From the NCBI GenBank assembly GCA_026770705.1, contig JANJGN010000075.1:248001-312000 (forward strand): a stretch of 64,000 nucleotides of DNA, written 5' to 3'. Below are positions 51,001 to 62,000 of this stretch, in pieces. This stretch comes from Isurus oxyrinchus. Lineage: Eukaryota. Position numbers: made by a program. Within the stretch, counting starts at the first letter, position 1; each line of letters opens with the position of its first letter.

Positions 51001-54000
51001 CCCATGCTGCAGTTGAGTGGGTAGAGTGGAAATGCTAGGCTTGTTCTACTGAGAGCAGAAACAAAGTTTGAGGCGAGATTTGATGATGTTGAAAATTACA
51101 ATTCTTTTTGACGGAATGCATAAGAAAAAATTGTTTCCAGTGGTGAAAGAGTCGGTAACCAGAGGGCACACAGTTGAACATGATTGGCAAAAGAACCAAA
51201 GGGGCCATGATGGGGACAACATTCTGCACTAACAGCGATGTGTTATGATCTGGAATGCACCTACTGAAATGGAATTATGAACCTTTGAAAGATGATTGGA
51301 CAATTGCCTGTGCAGAGGGCAGAAAACATGTATATTAGGAATAGGGATTAATTGCAAAGCTCTACAAACAGGCTGGAAAGTGTACAATAAGAGGAAGGGC
51401 CTTCTCTGTACTGCATTGCATCATTCTCTGATTCCAGGGTAAAGGCAAGGTATTAGTCTGCATTTAATCAATTCATATTCTCTCATTTCAGTGGCTTTTG
51501 CTGTTCAGCGGAGCGCATCTCAATGTAAGTATCAACATTTCTCTCTGAAGTCCTGACATTGAATAATTAATGCCTTTACTGTTCAATAAATAAGATTGAT
51601 GTAATGGAAATGAGTTTGATTGCTCTAACCAATGGTGTTGTAACATTGATAACTACAAAGCAACATGCATTCTAGCAGTTGCCAGTGCGATAACGCAATG
51701 GAAAAATGTGCTTTTTGACACCTTATCCCATTCCATTTCTGTGCCGAGGATGCCGAGGCAGCAATCCAGTTTTCCACATGGTCACAGATCAATGCTCCAA
51801 TGAATGTTAAAATGATTTCAAAATGTATTTGAATGCCCCATTCAAAGTCCCCACATTTGCTATAAGGACAGAGGAGGCCATTGTATCCTTTATGTCTGTT
51901 CTGTCTTTCTATGCCAGCGTGGCTGGACTATTGGTTCTCTCCTTTGATTAGTTTTGGTTACATTACCCTTAACTACATAAAGTAAACAGGAAACTATCAA
52001 TTTACCTGGGCTCTGGAGCTATTCTGCATTAGTATGTTCAAATATTTCCTCCACTCAGTGCTTTCTGTCAAAACCATCATTGGAAGGTGTTGTTTCACTT
52101 TGGCATTTATTTCTGCTAGTTCTGCACAAGGAACTATTGGACACAGAATCGCTCTATCCCGTCCAGGAAACAGCTAATTTACCTGAAACACTTCTATTTC
52201 GTCAATTTATCTTCTACGCTCAGCATTGTACATGTAGACTGCTGTCATAATTCACACCAAGTAGTCTGGAACTTTTTCTCTAATTCTTCAGAGGTCTAAT
52301 CTCACAAATGTCGCCCCTGTCCACTCAGCCAAGCCTGCGCCACCATCGAGAATTTTTCAATGGATCAAATTGAGCAATTGTCGCTTTCCATCTCGAATCT
52401 TGGCTCACTCAGTTAAAATACAAGCGTTATTCATTTCTATGCACTCTCTTTTCCTACTAGCTTTGACTAAGACCTTGTTCAGTAAAGTCGCACCCCGTTC
52501 TCCTGGTGGCAACTTTTCCCTGACACACCGGATCTGTTTCTGTCGCACTGCAGTACTTATTCTGAGCGTTCAATACCCTTTAATGGTCCCTTGTCACCTT
52601 CCCCTCCATCCAACACCATTATTCACACTTTATTTTGTATAATCCGTAGTTGTCCACCCAACACCAATTCCCTCTGACAGACTCACAGCAACACCAGTTT
52701 GCTTTCATTTATATAGCGGCTTTAATGGAGTATCACGGCCCAAGGCGCTTCACGTGAACCAGCATGAAACGATATTAGACACCATGTAACGGACGGAGAT
52801 TTTAGGGCCGGAGGCCAAAATCTATGCCGAACAAGCAGGTATGAAGGTGTATCCTAAAGTAAGGCAGGGAAAGGTGACACAGTGCAGCGAGGAAAGCCCA
52901 AAGCTTCGGGCCCCCAGGCAGCTGAATACGCCAATTGTGGAGCAATGGAAATCTCAAGCGGCCGGAACAAGTGGAGCGCAGAGATGACGGAGTGCAGGGG
53001 TGTTTGGAGGAGATTACACAGAGAGGCTTCGAGGGCCATGGGGGGGATTTCACAACAAGAATGAGCTTATTGTGAAATCTAGGCTTCCCTTCATGGGCTG
53101 GCGACGTGGGAAAATTTACTTCTCTTTGAACCGGTGTCATGTAACAATGGAGCTTATTGCGAATGGAAAGAGCAGACAGCTGATGTTTAGTTAATTTCAA
53201 GTTTACACCCGGTGGAATATGTGGGTTTCGTAAATGTGCAGGTGGAATAGACATGGCTGCAGGTGACAAGAGCAGATCAAAGGACGCGGAGGTGGAATCA
53301 GGTGATGCCACTGAGGCAGATATGAGTTCATAGTGATGGAGCGTGCTAGGTCAACTCAGGGTCAAAGGTGGCACTAAAGTTGTAAAGAGGCTCTCTCAAA
53401 GCCTGATTTTGTCCAGGGAGCGGGATGAAGTCGATGGCTTGGAATGGGGCCACTGGGGTGAGGGCTAAGTGTCTGGGGGGTCTAATCCCACGGCCTGCTT
53501 CCCATCAGCATTTTTGGTTTAGCAACACAACACCTGCTGCATCGCCTCAGAGGCACTCAAAATCAGATTCTCAAAGGCAATGAGGGATGGGCAACAATTG
53601 TCAGCCTGGCCAAATGCAATCACTTCAGAATGATTGAATAATTCTTCTGTTTCACAAGGGCAACTCCGTTGTTCGAATTCAAATCCACATGGTTTAAAGA
53701 AGAATTTCATTATCTTTAGTCACATTTTCTCCTCGGCCAAATTGACTATAAATATTGAAAGCTCATCAAACAAACTCTTCCATTCACTTCTATGCCAGGG
53801 TAACATTTCTGATCAAACGTCCAAATTGAAAGACAGCTCCAACTGATTTTGTTTCTTTGGCGTGACTATTTGATTTCCAATATCTCAAAAGTAGCTGCTT
53901 GCAACGCCCGGAGTTACTTAAACCCATCATGTTACTTCAAATATCACACTATTTCTCAGTTTACAAATCACTAAACATCATTTTGTTCCAACTCATTTCC

Positions 54001-59000: not shown

Positions 59001-62000
59001 GCATCTAACATCGCCAAAGAGCAAGGCTGTGACCGTGACTACGAGAGGTGAGTGACAGAAAACATAGCTTGTCAACATGATTCTTCGCTGGGCTTGGCAC
59101 ATTGACAAATTAAGGTCCTTTTATCGAAATGAAACGGTCACTATTCGGGGGCAGGATTGTTTGTGAAAACCATTGACTTCATTGCTCAAGTCCTGACACT
59201 TTCTCTGAAAGAATGGGCTCTGAATTCACTCGCTGGGCATCAGGTGCAGGTGCAAGTGTTGAGATGGGAAGCGGAGGAAAGCAGGAGGAGGGTGTGAGCA
59301 GGCAATCAACAGCTGAACGATCCTATCACTGAGTGAGGGGGCATCCATTGTTGGATGAGATCATGGCACATCCCGGGAATGGGTTATGCTCTTTCTGATA
59401 ACATGTTTGGCCCGAGTGCCCAACCACGACCAATGAGCCTGTCAGGCATTAGAGGCATCCCATCAAAAATACCACATGTTGTGGGGCAGGATGTGCCGTC
59501 CAATCGTTTCACTGTTTGTCTTTAATTCTCCACATTGATGCTGGCACTAACTGCCTTTGTCATGGACTATCTTCATTCATGCCCTTAATAAGAATGTGGC
59601 ACGCTATCCTAAGTCAGAAGCTTGTGTGATCAACCCCAGCACTAGAAATGAGAGCCATCACTTAGGCCGGCACTCCCCCTGGTGCCAGTTTTGAGCGAGT
59701 GCTGCATTTTCGGAGGCAGATGTCAATGCTCCAGGGCCTGAGCTCCATAATCCAGGCAGACACTTACCCGGTCCCTGCGAGATTGTGTGACGTCCCCTAA
59801 TTAAATAGGACATTAAAACGAGTGCCCAGTCCACCATTCCATGTTGAGGTATTGCAAAACGCTCTATTGCTGTGAGTCAAATCTTTGGGATCTTCGCTTC
59901 GGTATCCATGGGCCAAACATTCATCTTGAAAGAACATCACTGAAGGAAAAACCACATCACTGAAGGAAAAAGCACATCACTGAAGGAAAAAGCGCGCTGG
60001 TTTTCCCCGCCACGAATTGATTTCTGTTCATGCGATCATGCTCTCTTCAAATCTGCTTATGACTGTAGCTTATAGACTGATTAATGAACTCACTTCGGTC
60101 ATACTTTCGCAGCCGTACAGCTGTTGGGGAAGGCCGAGTTCCTCATTGGCCTGTATAAATGTGTTTGCTTATCCTCCTTCCTTCGTCAGCAAATCCTGAT
60201 CTCTACATTTGTTAATTCTCAAACACCTAGAAACCCGGTGTCTCGACACAGTTCAGTTGATGTGTTTTTACCCTGCTGCTGTACATGGAAAAGCTCTGAT
60301 CCATTTCTAATTGTTCCCTCAATTAATTTTACCACAGGTCCGCTAAAAATCCCAGTGATATCTCTTGATCAAACCACAGGGGTGTATGCAGCAGGAGAGA
60401 CAATCAACATGACCTGCTCTGTGACCGGTGATAATCGCAATAAAATGTTTTATTTTTATAAAGGGTATCAACAGTTGTCCCCTAGTCCAATCATCACAAA
60501 TACCAATTCTTTAAGATTCCCGAATGCCAGTCCAAGCAACAGTGGACAATACCAATGTCAATATAGAATTACCTTCCAGAGCAGGCACTTGGATTCCAAA
60601 TTGAGCCAAGCTGTAACGGTGACCATAGCAGGTGAGTGACAGGGAGCAGAGACTTCAACATTTCTAATTATTGTGTTGGCTGTTTGAAATAATCAATGAT
60701 TCATTCACTTAAAATGTCCCTCATTAAAAATAAGCGGAGAGGGAATCCAAATGTTCTGCGACCTCATTCCACAATTGTGCCCAATGTACCCGCTGTATTT
60801 TGACTGTAATTGCAGCAGCTGGGGTGGGCAGGAGTGGAAAGCAGGTGTATGGTGTAAGGGGCCAGTCAGTAGCTGAAGTGTTCTGTCGCTGGGGGAGGCC
60901 AGCGACCATTGGCGGTATATTCCACAGCCTTAATTGGGATTATATTAGGCACATTATAAACATCACAGATCCTTTCCACACTCCGGTGTTGAATGGTATC
61001 TTCATTCAGTCTCATTGGTTTATTTCCATACTTAAGCTTCCTTCAACTAGGAGAAAATTCCCAGCTCCTCCAATCTCTTTGCAGAACAACGTTGGTATGC
61101 AAAGACGCTGGAGAAGCTGGAAATTTTCTCGTAGAGCAACGAAGGTTAAGTGAGTTTTTCATAGAGCTTTGCAAAATCATTACGAGCAAGATAAAGGAAA
61201 TAAGGAATAAAAGTCAGTTTCGAACTTTGAATCAATAGTTGCTAACTCTTCAATTCCAATTCCAGATCTTCCCGAACCAGACATATCTGTGGACTCTAGC
61301 GCTGTTCTTCTGGGTGGAGCTGTCACATTTAACTGTACAAGCCCCGGGGACAATCCCATCATCGCATTTTACCTATACAGAGAAGGAGATGTGAATCATG
61401 ATGGGTTGAAGTCTGCTGCTTCAGGGAACAATTCTGTCACCTTCACCATCAGGAATATCCATCACTCTGAGATAGGAGATTACACCTGTCGCTATGAAGC
61501 GCTGCTTAACGGAAGAAAGCTAGCCTCAGCTCTGAGTGACCCTGTGCACATCACTGTAACAGGTGAGTGTGGCTCACAATCAATATATCCATCTAACCGT
61601 AAGAAAATGTGCTCCTGTTTAAATTTCATTCTGTGCCATTTCCTGACTACAGTAACTAGCTCACTTAACAAATAAAAGCAACAAGAAAGTAGAAATTTGA
61701 AGACAAAAATGAAAAGGTAGGAGCTCATTTTGTATTTGATACAGATCCCATGCACACAAGGCCTATTTGGGTGATAATATTTGCTTTAAAGTCTTCAAAA
61801 TATACAAATAATGACATAACGTTAATGTTGATTAATCTGTTTATACCACAAGAAGAGTCAGCAAGCGGTGAAAGAAAAGTTACAGATGGTTCTCTTGGCA
61901 GCAGGGATTGAAACAAAAAACATCAAAGTTGAGGACAGAGTTTATTGTCTGATGTTGTTCAACTCAATATTATGTCCAAAAGTCTTTAAACTTCCTAAGC

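Follow-up and report, generated by a model that had tools for sequence, protein, structure and literature searches.

We analyzed a 64-kb stretch of the genome of the shark Isurus oxyrinchus (GenBank assembly GCA_026770705.1, contig JANJGN010000075.1, positions 248,001 to 312,000 of the forward strand), which we will call the window and number from its first letter. Probably, some five-sixths of a type I membrane receptor gene, counted from its 5' end, lie in the window; the gene appears intact and encodes a split signal peptide and four immunoglobulin (Ig) domains. It is likely a member of a multigene family of chondrichthyans, which forms part of the wider group of Ig-like immunoreceptors that comprises the Fc receptors (FcR), the Fc receptor-like proteins (FCRL), and the receptors of the leukocyte receptor complex (LRC). 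The family is a new lineage-specific variant within a known kind, namely paired Ig-like immunoreceptors, and has an LRC-like membrane-proximal domain. As far as we could see, it is present in public automatic annotation but is undescribed and misnamed.

Gene structure

The window contains no N, and its G+C content is about 39-48%. We searched it exon by exon; our statements about whole proteins are drawn from database proteins. On the plus strand between 50.5 and 62.5 kb, a list of stop-to-stop open reading frames (ORFs) includes five with Ig-domain sequence. Splice-site mapping and direct reading gave four intact Ig exons (A, C, D, and E). Each begins and ends in phase 1 (phase 1-1) and lies between an AG acceptor that is rich in pyrimidines and a GTGAGT donor. 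All four score above the curated cut-offs of Pfam Ig_2 or Ig_3 (E = 4.9e-7 to 1.2e-11).

The proteins closest to these exons are P0003 and P0004, which are predicted isoforms from Carcharodon carcharias. NCBI names them [quoted passage not shown] (P0003) and "platelet endothelial cell adhesion molecule-like isoform X3" (P0004). Exon A (54106..54402, plus strand; 297 nt) encodes the first distal domain, matches Ig_2 (E = 4.9e-7), and is 90.8% identical to residues 23-120 of P0004. The second distal domain is encoded by exon C (58754..59047, plus strand; 294 nt), which matches Ig_3 (E = 7.9e-10) and is 92.9% identical to residues 121-218 of P0004. Exon D (60338..60631, plus strand; 294 nt) encodes the third distal domain, matches Ig_2 (E = 1.2e-11), and is 96.0% identical to residues 165-264 of P0003; this domain is skipped in isoform X3 (P0004). 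The membrane-proximal domain is encoded by exon E (61266..61562, plus strand; 297 nt), which is the gene's last exon within the window. Exon E matches Ig_3 (E = 1.5e-8) and Ig_C19orf38 (E = 3.8e-7) and is 95-96% identical to P0003 and P0004 (95.0% in the exon-by-exon comparison). As explained below, we distinguish the D-type domains (A, C, and D) from the E-type domain (E).

The C-strand motifs of the Ig exons are FCIYK, FNFYK, FYFYK, and FYLYREG, and the C-terminal motif SxxSx(A/P)VxxTxx is present. The conserved Cys and Tyr-x-Cys positions are retained in the live exons. Because the Ig exons are symmetric, skipping or duplicating a domain leaves the reading frame intact. This explains both the isoforms, such as P0004 without domain D, and the duplication and decay of exons in the window, which we describe below.

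Exon E (61268-61561) also passes the curated cut-off of Pfam PF17737, which describes the Ig domain of C19orf38/HIDE1 (30.8 bits versus a cut-off of 23.2). The match may reflect no more than overlap among the families of the Ig clan, or it may point to a genuine relationship with the little-studied C19orf38/HIDE1.

The signal peptide is divided between two exons. The coding part of exon 1 (36252..36282, plus strand) encodes the first half: it begins with an ATG (A at -3 and G at +4), contains 31 nt of coding sequence (10 codons plus 1 base), and ends at a gtgagt donor. In a tblastn search with the first 24 residues of P0004, 9 of the 10 residues of exon 1 were identical to the start of that protein. 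The second half is encoded by a 33-nt mini-exon (51492..51524, plus strand), which has phase 1 at both ends, a tttcag acceptor, and a gtaagt donor. Intron 1 is about 15 kb long (exon 1 lies 15.2 kb upstream of the mini-exon). Eight of the mini-exon's 10 full codons match leader residues of P0004. The codons that form at the leader junctions, G+TG (Val) and T+AT (Tyr), equal the corresponding residues of P0004, and further junction codons (G+AG, Glu; G+GT, Gly; and G+AT, Asp) agree with the domain joins of P0003 and P0004. Since the junction codons and the leader residues are reproduced in P0004, the mini-exon is real and the leader is split as 31 + 33 nt.

A preliminary description of this DNA, made without database searches, had reported a 33-nt phase-1 mini-exon followed by four open phase-1 Ig exons of 294-297 nt, in a probable cartilaginous fish. 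The splice signals, the Pfam matches, and the 91-96% identity to Carcharodon proteins bear this out. That description overlooked exon 1, a dead exon (B), and pieces of decayed paralogs elsewhere in the window.

Downstream of exon E there are 1.6 kb of CA-rich low-complexity sequence, and then the window ends. Tracts rich in CA/ACAC occur at 62450-64000, ~55900-56060, and ~58250-58500, and the last 2 kb of the window has a GC skew of -0.48 and an AT skew of +0.36. The tract at the window's end hides the sequence beyond exon E.

A family of receptors in cartilaginous fishes

P0003 and P0004 share the domain order and the leader residues of the window gene, and they differ from each other by one whole Ig exon. 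They are not identical to the window gene, and so represent another species, locus, or allele, and they supply the transmembrane and tail part; the window gene's own protein was absent from the collection that we searched. Their automatic names are misleading. In Carcharodon, a single 2.7-Mb scaffold carries six proteins of the family.

We built an E-type profile from six domains and a D-type profile from 11 sequences. The E-type profile found 39 proteins, including 28 from chondrichthyans, 8 from turtles, and 3 weak matches from teleosts. The chondrichthyan proteins are from eight species, in the genera Carcharodon, Cetorhinus, Mustelus, Pristiophorus, Rhincodon, Heptranchias, Mobula, and Scyliorhinus. 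The turtle proteins are LILRA1/IGSF1-like or unnamed Ig proteins, with 33-36% identity. An exhaustive search with exon E alone retrieved 995 cluster representatives at E ≤ 1e-3; of these, 357 had E ≤ 1e-10 and 54 had E ≤ 1e-30. The closest proteins to the window's exons are from lamniform and other sharks, which supports the reading as a multi-Ig receptor gene from a cartilaginous fish. The earlier suggestion of an expanded and poorly characterised chondrichthyan family also held up, given relatives in eight species and no published description that we could find.

The names of the 28 chondrichthyan proteins are inconsistent: 12 are named FCRL5, 7 IGSF1-like, 2 HSPG2-like, 2 LILRA3/A6, 1 KIR3DL1, 1 OSCAR, and 1 PECAM-like, and 2 are uncharacterized. 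In other words, the relatives are hidden under seven unrelated automatic names, plus the "uncharacterized" entries. Of 19 chondrichthyan proteins that we examined, 18 end their series of Ig domains with an E-type domain, which follows 1-9 other domains; the exception is truncated at its C-terminus.

Some members of the family are larger. P0012, P0028, P0160, and P0027 (from Pristiophorus, Mustelus, Rhincodon, and Mobula) have two extra domain types, one N-terminal (100% support in the tree described below) and one internal, with a SFYLYR-like C strand (99%). Neither type is in the window gene.

Affinity of the domains

We compared the two domain types to proteins of known structure, and exon E gave the clearer result. 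Using exon E as a single-sequence query against PDB, we found full-length alignments to PIR-B D1 (E = 7.9e-9), LILRB2 D3, LILRA2, CHIR-AB1, and LAIR1, while FcgRII reached only ~0.015. The E-type profile matches PIR-B (E = 2.5e-21; 32.8 bits for D1), CHIR-AB1 (33.2 bits), and LAIR1 (31.3 bits), as well as LILRB1/2, LILRA6, LILRB3, NKp46, and KIR3DL1. No FcR or FCRL is among its best 60 PDB matches. (Titin and CEA rank high with this profile, solely by summing many weak domains.) The AlphaFold model of exon E (pLDDT 86.2) gave a similar picture: the head of the Foldseek list is CHIR-AB1 (TM scores of 0.84/0.88 and a root-mean-square deviation of 1.8 Å), LAIR-1, LILRA5, LILRB4, LILRB1, and OSCAR. 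LILRB2 D3D4, GPVI, and KIR2DL3 rank lower, and from rank 10 onwards the list is mixed with generic V-type domains. The neighbors of exon E in the Atlas, which we treat as a lead only, are KIR3DX1, IGSF1-like, and A1BG, with FCRL2 after them. The domain of exon E is thus LRC-like in both its sequence profile and its predicted fold, the two kinds of evidence by which PMC6557307 assigned domains to the LRC.

The D-type domains are harder to place. With exon D as the query, the best single-sequence match in PDB was FCRL5 (E = 1.7e-5), followed by DCC, LRIG1, CEACAM6, and FceRIa. FCRL5 is also the best PDB match of the D-type profile, with E = 1.2e-32 summed over nine domains; of these, D4 scores 26.8 bits and D6 scores 22.6. 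The same profile matches the single domain of CHIR-AB1 over its full length with 28.6 bits, FceRIa and FcaRI with 28.9 and 28.4 bits (over two domains each), and PIR-B domains with about 13 bits. Per domain, the scores of FCRL5 and CHIR-AB1 are equal within noise. The D-type model (pLDDT 81.5) retrieved generic V-like domains with Foldseek (SIRP, VNAR, and nanobodies), with PIR-B at rank 38, so the fold search does not discriminate for this type. The Atlas neighbors of exon D are FCRL2, sialoadhesin, IGSF1-like, and FCGR3. On these comparisons, exons A, C, and D lean toward FCRL, but the scores do not decide between FCRL and LRC. The preliminary description had labelled the whole gene LRC-type (LILR/KIR/OSCAR/A1BG-like). 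The label suits exon E, by profile and by fold, and is only partly supported for the gene as a whole: for exons A, C, and D, FCRL5 and CHIR-AB1 score alike.

Two other features had been put forward as hallmarks of the LRC. One is the lack of a Trp in the C strand. All four Ig exons do lack this residue. However, the aligned FCRL5 domains have YRFYHE, YQFYHE, or YWFYHE at this position, and LILR/PIR domains have YRLYK or FVLYK. Because the Trp is absent from both, the trait does not discriminate between them.

The other feature is the length of the second leader exon, which was taken to be 36 nt in LRC genes and 21 nt in FcR and FCRL genes. For the 36-nt figure, our literature search, which covered text of PMC11835228, PMC6557307, PMC1458963, and PMC1559706, found no published statement. 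The mini-exon in the window has 33 nt, and exon 1 has 31 nt, as does exon 1 of a minus-strand paralog (see below). The other half of the rule has a source: in FCRL1-6, FcgRI, and FCRLB, the exons for the signal peptide follow a 30/21 bp rule (PMC2413239; this paper, PMC6557307, PMC4810170, and PMC4016189 are cited for those portions of their text that were available). The 33-nt mini-exon thus counts against FcR/FCRL and is only close to the LRC figure, being one codon shorter.

Domain tree

We built a quick maximum-likelihood tree of 91 domains (99 columns) with IQ-TREE. The tree included the window's four Ig exons together with every domain of 18 proteins from a set of 28 with names, which were picked beforehand for taxonomic spread; the ten other named proteins and all unnamed cluster representatives were left out. 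Four shark domain types were supported: the E-type (95%), the D-type (97% in the Shimodaira-Hasegawa-like approximate likelihood ratio test, SH-aLRT), the N-terminal type (100%), and the third, internal type (99%). Exon A lies within the D-type clade (97% SH-aLRT). The LRC domains of turtles form one clade (99%), and the CD22-like and CEACAM5-like domains of teleosts fall outside the group of shark and turtle domains (96%).

We considered a CEACAM/CD22-type assignment for the window's domains. It is ruled out by the position of the teleost domains (96%) and by the scores of CEA with the D-type profile, which are at most 13 bits per domain.

Signaling ends and a proposed mechanism

For 16 relatives, we compared the tails beyond the last Ig domain. 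In nine of them, the transmembrane segment is uncharged and there is an immunoreceptor tyrosine-based inhibitory motif (ITIM; xTYAxL/I), and 8 of these have a second motif, TxYAxV. Three others (the nearest Carcharodon protein and proteins from Mustelus and Heptranchias) share a transmembrane segment that carries PIRL at its outer edge, FG midway, and Glu close to its inner edge. The tail behind it is short and lacks tyrosine motifs; we will call these three proteins the Arg-transmembrane forms. The remaining four tails are of other kinds or are probably mispredicted. The E-type domains of the ITIM and Arg-transmembrane relatives form one clade. As judged from these predicted proteins, the family shows the pattern of paired receptors, with similar ectodomains on either ITIM tails or a charged transmembrane segment with a short tail.

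There are precedents for the charged form. The activating transmembrane segment of LRC receptors has an Arg within NxxR and acidic residues at its C-terminal end, and it associates with the FcR gamma chain (PMC6557307). The same Arg/acidic module is found in Xenopus FcR-like receptors (PMC2413239). The classical activating FcRs have a different transmembrane motif, (M/L)Fxx(D/N)TxL (PMC2413239). We did not find this motif in the nearest Carcharodon protein, which has MF and then hydrophobic residues, with no D/N-T.

Given its near-identity to the Carcharodon gene, we infer that the window gene has an Arg-transmembrane tail, and it is most likely the activating member of a system of paired receptors. 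The predicted receptor would have, behind a signal peptide encoded by 31 + 33 nt, three D-type domains (A, C, and D) and one E-type domain (E). Exons beyond the window would supply a transmembrane helix, which has an Arg at the outer edge and a Glu close to the inner edge, and a short tail without tyrosine motifs. The receptor would presumably be expressed in leukocytes, where it would bind a ligand by its ectodomain and signal positively through an adaptor with an acidic transmembrane segment and an ITAM (immunoreceptor tyrosine-based activation motif). The ITIM-bearing paralogs would signal negatively and oppose the activating member.

Duplicated and decayed exons in the window

Besides the live exons, the window contains a number of dead ones. 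Pseudo-exon B (56367..56642, plus strand) is a copy of exon C in which the acceptor AG has become TG and 21 nt (7 codons) have been deleted. The next AG downstream is out of frame and leads to a stop after 8 codons. Pseudo-exon B scores 16.9 bits with Pfam Ig_2, under the cut-off of 27. It is 58% identical to P0003 and P0004, in which the aligned Ig domains are the counterparts of A, C, D, and E and leave no room for B.

Pseudo-exon B and exon C are in a tandem duplication with a unit of about 2.4 kb (54909..59754, plus strand; the units are 54909-57265 and 57266-59754). In a self-comparison with blastn, 55209-57328 and 57508-59754 are 74.6% identical, and 54909-55151 and 57266-57508 are 80.7% identical. 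One Ig exon (B or C) lies in each unit, along with a half-Ig relic and a microsatellite rich in CA. The relic in the first unit (55262..55438, plus strand) preserves only profile positions 41-95 of a D-type Ig exon, which make up its 3' half, with a stop codon before it; it was detected with hidden Markov models (HMMs) of the window's exons (E = 1.9e-8) and of the D-type (E = 1.1e-11). The relic in the second unit is more decayed (57676..57750, plus strand; HMM positions 69-93, E = 9e-4).

Upstream of exon 1, on the same strand, are the remains of a dead paralog with the domain order of the live gene. It has three D-type relics (27022-27274, 28128-28374, and 31842-32029, plus strand) with frameshifts or stops, and an E-type relic (32999-33277, plus strand) with an in-frame stop at 33140-33142 and the second Cys lost.

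The minus strand holds parts of other paralogs. At 26315-26256 is an orphan terminal coding exon of the inhibitory type, with an AG acceptor, 19 codons that include a TxYxxV motif, and a stop. It is about 80% identical to the C-termini of paralogs from Carcharodon and Cetorhinus. Near this exon (26.3 kb), we found no transmembrane, ITIM, or Ig exon in the same orientation. A second exon 1, from a paralog oriented opposite to the window gene, lies at 8201-8171 (minus strand) and looks intact: it has an ATG in a Kozak-like context, 31 nt of coding sequence, and a gtgagt donor. It is within a 4.7-kb inverted copy (4303-8900 versus 35534-40067, 72% identity) that spans the counterpart of the focal promoter, exon 1, and the early part of the intron. 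Further blocks of intron 1 (40866-49282) are mirrored at 1-2724, near the left edge of the window. We found no mini-exon or Ig exon for this paralog on the window's minus strand.

Overall, the locus illustrates birth-and-death evolution by the duplication and decay of exons.

The window also has several repeats. A minisatellite of 56 bp is present in 5.3 copies at 13795-14093 (94% matches). About 6.5 kb of long tandem repeats (~14.1-20.6 kb) have units of about 1 kb that are 67-81% identical by self-blastn; these are beyond the period limit of TRF (500). An element of about 100 nt occurs three times at 99-100% identity, at 15474-15576 and 19979-20072 (both in the tandem array) and at 28972-29075 (inverted and near the dead paralog). 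It matches no tRNA or Rfam family. As for other genes in the window, none of the 51 ORFs of at least 95 amino acids outside the Ig exons matches Pfam, and we found no tRNAs and no Rfam families.

Origin of the family and alternative explanations

Where does this family come from? One possible reading, which we consider less likely than not, is that the elasmobranch family is the cartilaginous-fish descendant of the stock that gave rise to both the LRC and the FcR/FCRL receptors. This descendant would already have combined a proximal domain of the LRC type with distal domains that lean toward FCRL, and it would have had a phase-1 leader in two parts and paired signaling by ITIM and Arg-transmembrane forms.

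Known receptor families resemble the shark family in part. The LRC receptors of tetrapods (LILR/PIR, KIR, CHIR, OSCAR, GPVI, LAIR, NKp46, IGSF1, and A1BG) likewise string together C2/I-type Ig domains encoded by phase-1 exons, have a split leader, and come in paired ITIM and Arg-transmembrane forms. Exon E aligns with several of them over its full length (PIR-B D1, LILRB2 D3, CHIR-AB1, and LAIR1); in these alignments, FYLYREG is opposite YRLYK and FVLYK. But identity is only about 21-36%, the distal domains A, C, and D are not clearly LRC-type, the mini-exon has 33 nt instead of 36, and (T/I/S)PIR takes the place of NxxR. The FcR/FCRL proteins, especially FCRL5, share with the shark family the many tandem Ig domains, the Trp-less C strand (in the FCRL5 domains that aligned), and paralog tails of the ITIM/ITSM type (ITSM, immunoreceptor tyrosine-based switch motif), and FCRL5 is the best PDB match of the D-type. 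They differ in the lengths of the leader exons (30/21 nt instead of 31/33), in their absence from the best 60 matches of exon E, and in the transmembrane motif of FcRs, which the relatives do not have.

The leukocyte immune-type receptors (LITRs) of teleosts, which are also lineage-specific paired Ig-like receptors, show a comparable split. Some subtypes of LITR domains resemble D1D2 of FcRs, others are KIR-like, and this mix has been proposed to be ancestral (PMC2413239, PMC4810170); in the shark family, the distal domains lean toward FCRL and the proximal domain is LRC-like. The resemblance is one of pattern only, as LITRs were compared by their published description, and none of the 39 proteins that match the E-type profile is named LITR. 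According to PMC6557307, it is uncertain whether any family in bony fish is a diverged counterpart of the LRC.

Several observations weigh against our main reading, in which the window gene is the activating member of a paired receptor family with an LRC-like proximal domain. The comparison proteins are all automatic predictions. We found no transmembrane or tail exon downstream of 61562 in the window, whether by lenient tblastn with the nearest Carcharodon tail, by tblastn with the tails of the 16 relatives, or by HMMs of both tail types against all ORFs of at least 12 amino acids; the one exon that these searches picked up is the orphan at 26.3 kb on the minus strand. The assignment as an activating receptor comes from a 91-96% identical protein of another genome or locus. 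In the Arg-transmembrane forms from Carcharodon, Mustelus, and Heptranchias, the Asn of NxxR is absent: they have (T/I/S)PIRL instead, although the Arg and the C-terminal Glu are present. The available text of Akula et al. 2014 (PMC4016189) reports no FcR gamma chain in shark data, and our search of the literature for ITAM adaptors in sharks found nothing newer. The LRC-likeness of exon E comes from profile scores and the ranking of folds, not from a resolved tree. A further comparison, in which 18 of 20 LRC-like domains of turtles scored higher with the E-type HMM than with the D-type HMM, is biased, as the turtle proteins were retrieved by the E-type profile. The tree has no resolution among the four shark types and the turtle LRC clade. 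When all 60 shark and window domains were placed in one clade, the likelihood was 25 lnL (log-likelihood) units better than that of the quick free tree, and this topology passed the approximately unbiased (AU) test (p-AU = 0.858). The split between E-type and D-type may therefore have arisen within the cartilaginous fishes. The AU test did not reject shark monophyly, and we dropped the idea that the tree could reveal two separately ancient domain lineages. Finally, the tree held no named FcR, FCRL, or LITR sequence, so it does not exclude the FcR and FCRL families.

The family might instead be a true member of the LRC lineage, with all four domains derived from the ancestor of tetrapod LILR, KIR, and CHIR, which would make this locus the shark counterpart of the LRC. 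We view this as possible but doubtful. The nearest named relatives of exon E are LRC proteins by sequence, fold, and Atlas features; the sole named relatives above noise from outside the chondrichthyans are turtle LILRA1/IGSF1-like proteins; and the tree unites every shark domain type with the LRC clade of turtles, to the exclusion of the CD22/CEACAM-like domains of teleosts (96%). Even the D-type profile gives CHIR-AB1 a score (28.6 bits) that matches that of any FCRL5 domain, and the 33-nt leader exon is nearer to 36 nt than to 21 nt. Yet it is not 36 nt, the best PDB match of the D-type is FCRL5, the Atlas neighbors of exon D are of mixed kinds, and the tree's lack of FcR and FCRL references applies here as well. 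Also, the Arg-transmembrane forms lack NxxR, which is the most conserved element of the LRC according to PMC6557307, and no LRC marker gene lies within the 64-kb window. (The framework genes of the LRC are TTYH1, LENG8/9, RPS9, TSEN34, MBOAT7, TMC4, CNOT3, PRPF31, and TFPT; PMC6557307.) The commonest NCBI name, "Fc receptor-like protein 5" (12 of 28 relatives), would make this an FCRL gene, which we think is rather unlikely. The D-type profile does match FCRL5 best, FCRL2 and FCGR3 are among the Atlas neighbors of exon D, and the inhibitory paralogs combine an ITIM with an ITSM-like motif, as FCRLs do. But the total for FCRL5 is inflated by its nine domains, and per domain it does not score above LRC proteins. 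The leader exons do not follow the 30/21 rule (PMC2413239), exon E has no FcR or FCRL among its best 60 PDB matches, and the nearest Carcharodon protein lacks (M/L)Fxx(D/N)TxL. Automatic names within the same family also include LILR, KIR3DL1, OSCAR, IGSF1-like, PECAM-like, and HSPG2-like.

Two other explanations concern whether this is a working immune receptor at all. The gene could be a dead or dying unprocessed pseudogene in a birth-and-death cluster: there is wreckage nearby (exon B, two half-Ig relics, the decayed four-exon paralog at 27.0-33.3 kb, and the orphan terminal exon on the opposite strand), the first intron is 15 kb long, and the 3' end is beyond the window. This is unlikely, as none of the six coding exons in the window is interrupted, their splice signals are canonical, and phase is conserved. 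Their protein sequence is 91-96% identical to predicted Carcharodon proteins and keeps the Cys and Tyr-x-Cys positions, while the relics, by contrast, carry stops and frameshifts. Or, the protein could have a non-immune role in adhesion or the extracellular matrix, as the two closest proteins' names, "PECAM-like" and "HSPG2 (perlecan)-like", suggest. Every search gave weak PDB matches to the Ig domains of PECAM (2.1e-5), titin, NCAM, and ROBO. These are generic Ig-domain matches, and the totals for titin are sums over six domains. We found no other features of perlecan or PECAM, and the family has the paired ITIM and Arg-transmembrane ends that are typical of immunoreceptors, so an adhesion or matrix protein is highly improbable.

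Implications for the origin of Ig-like immunoreceptors

The gene bears on when such immune receptors arose. In their analysis of shark and lamprey data, Akula et al. 2014 (PMC4016189, in the portions that were available) reported no FcRL, classical FcR, PIGR, FcR gamma chain, or C2-only LRC homologs. They concluded that such receptors first appear in bony fish, a view that was repeated in 2026 (PMC13337447). We found no description of such a shark family in the literature, including the available portions of PMC10751288, PMC6795676, and PMC4701786, in a collection that holds few of the subscription journals. A well-formed gene, with relatives in eight species of sharks and rays, conflicts with the published statements of absence.

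The family enables a test, by domain phylogeny and synteny, of the hypothesis that the LRC and FcR share a common origin. It also supplies candidate shark receptors for immunoglobulins, major histocompatibility complex (MHC) proteins, or pathogens. If the family does descend from the stock of both the LRC and FcR/FCRL, then LRC-type receptors and paired signaling would date to the common ancestor of jawed vertebrates, which would contradict the view that they originated in bony fish (PMC4016189, PMC13337447). The members of the family would then be obvious candidates for the unidentified Fc receptor of sharks.

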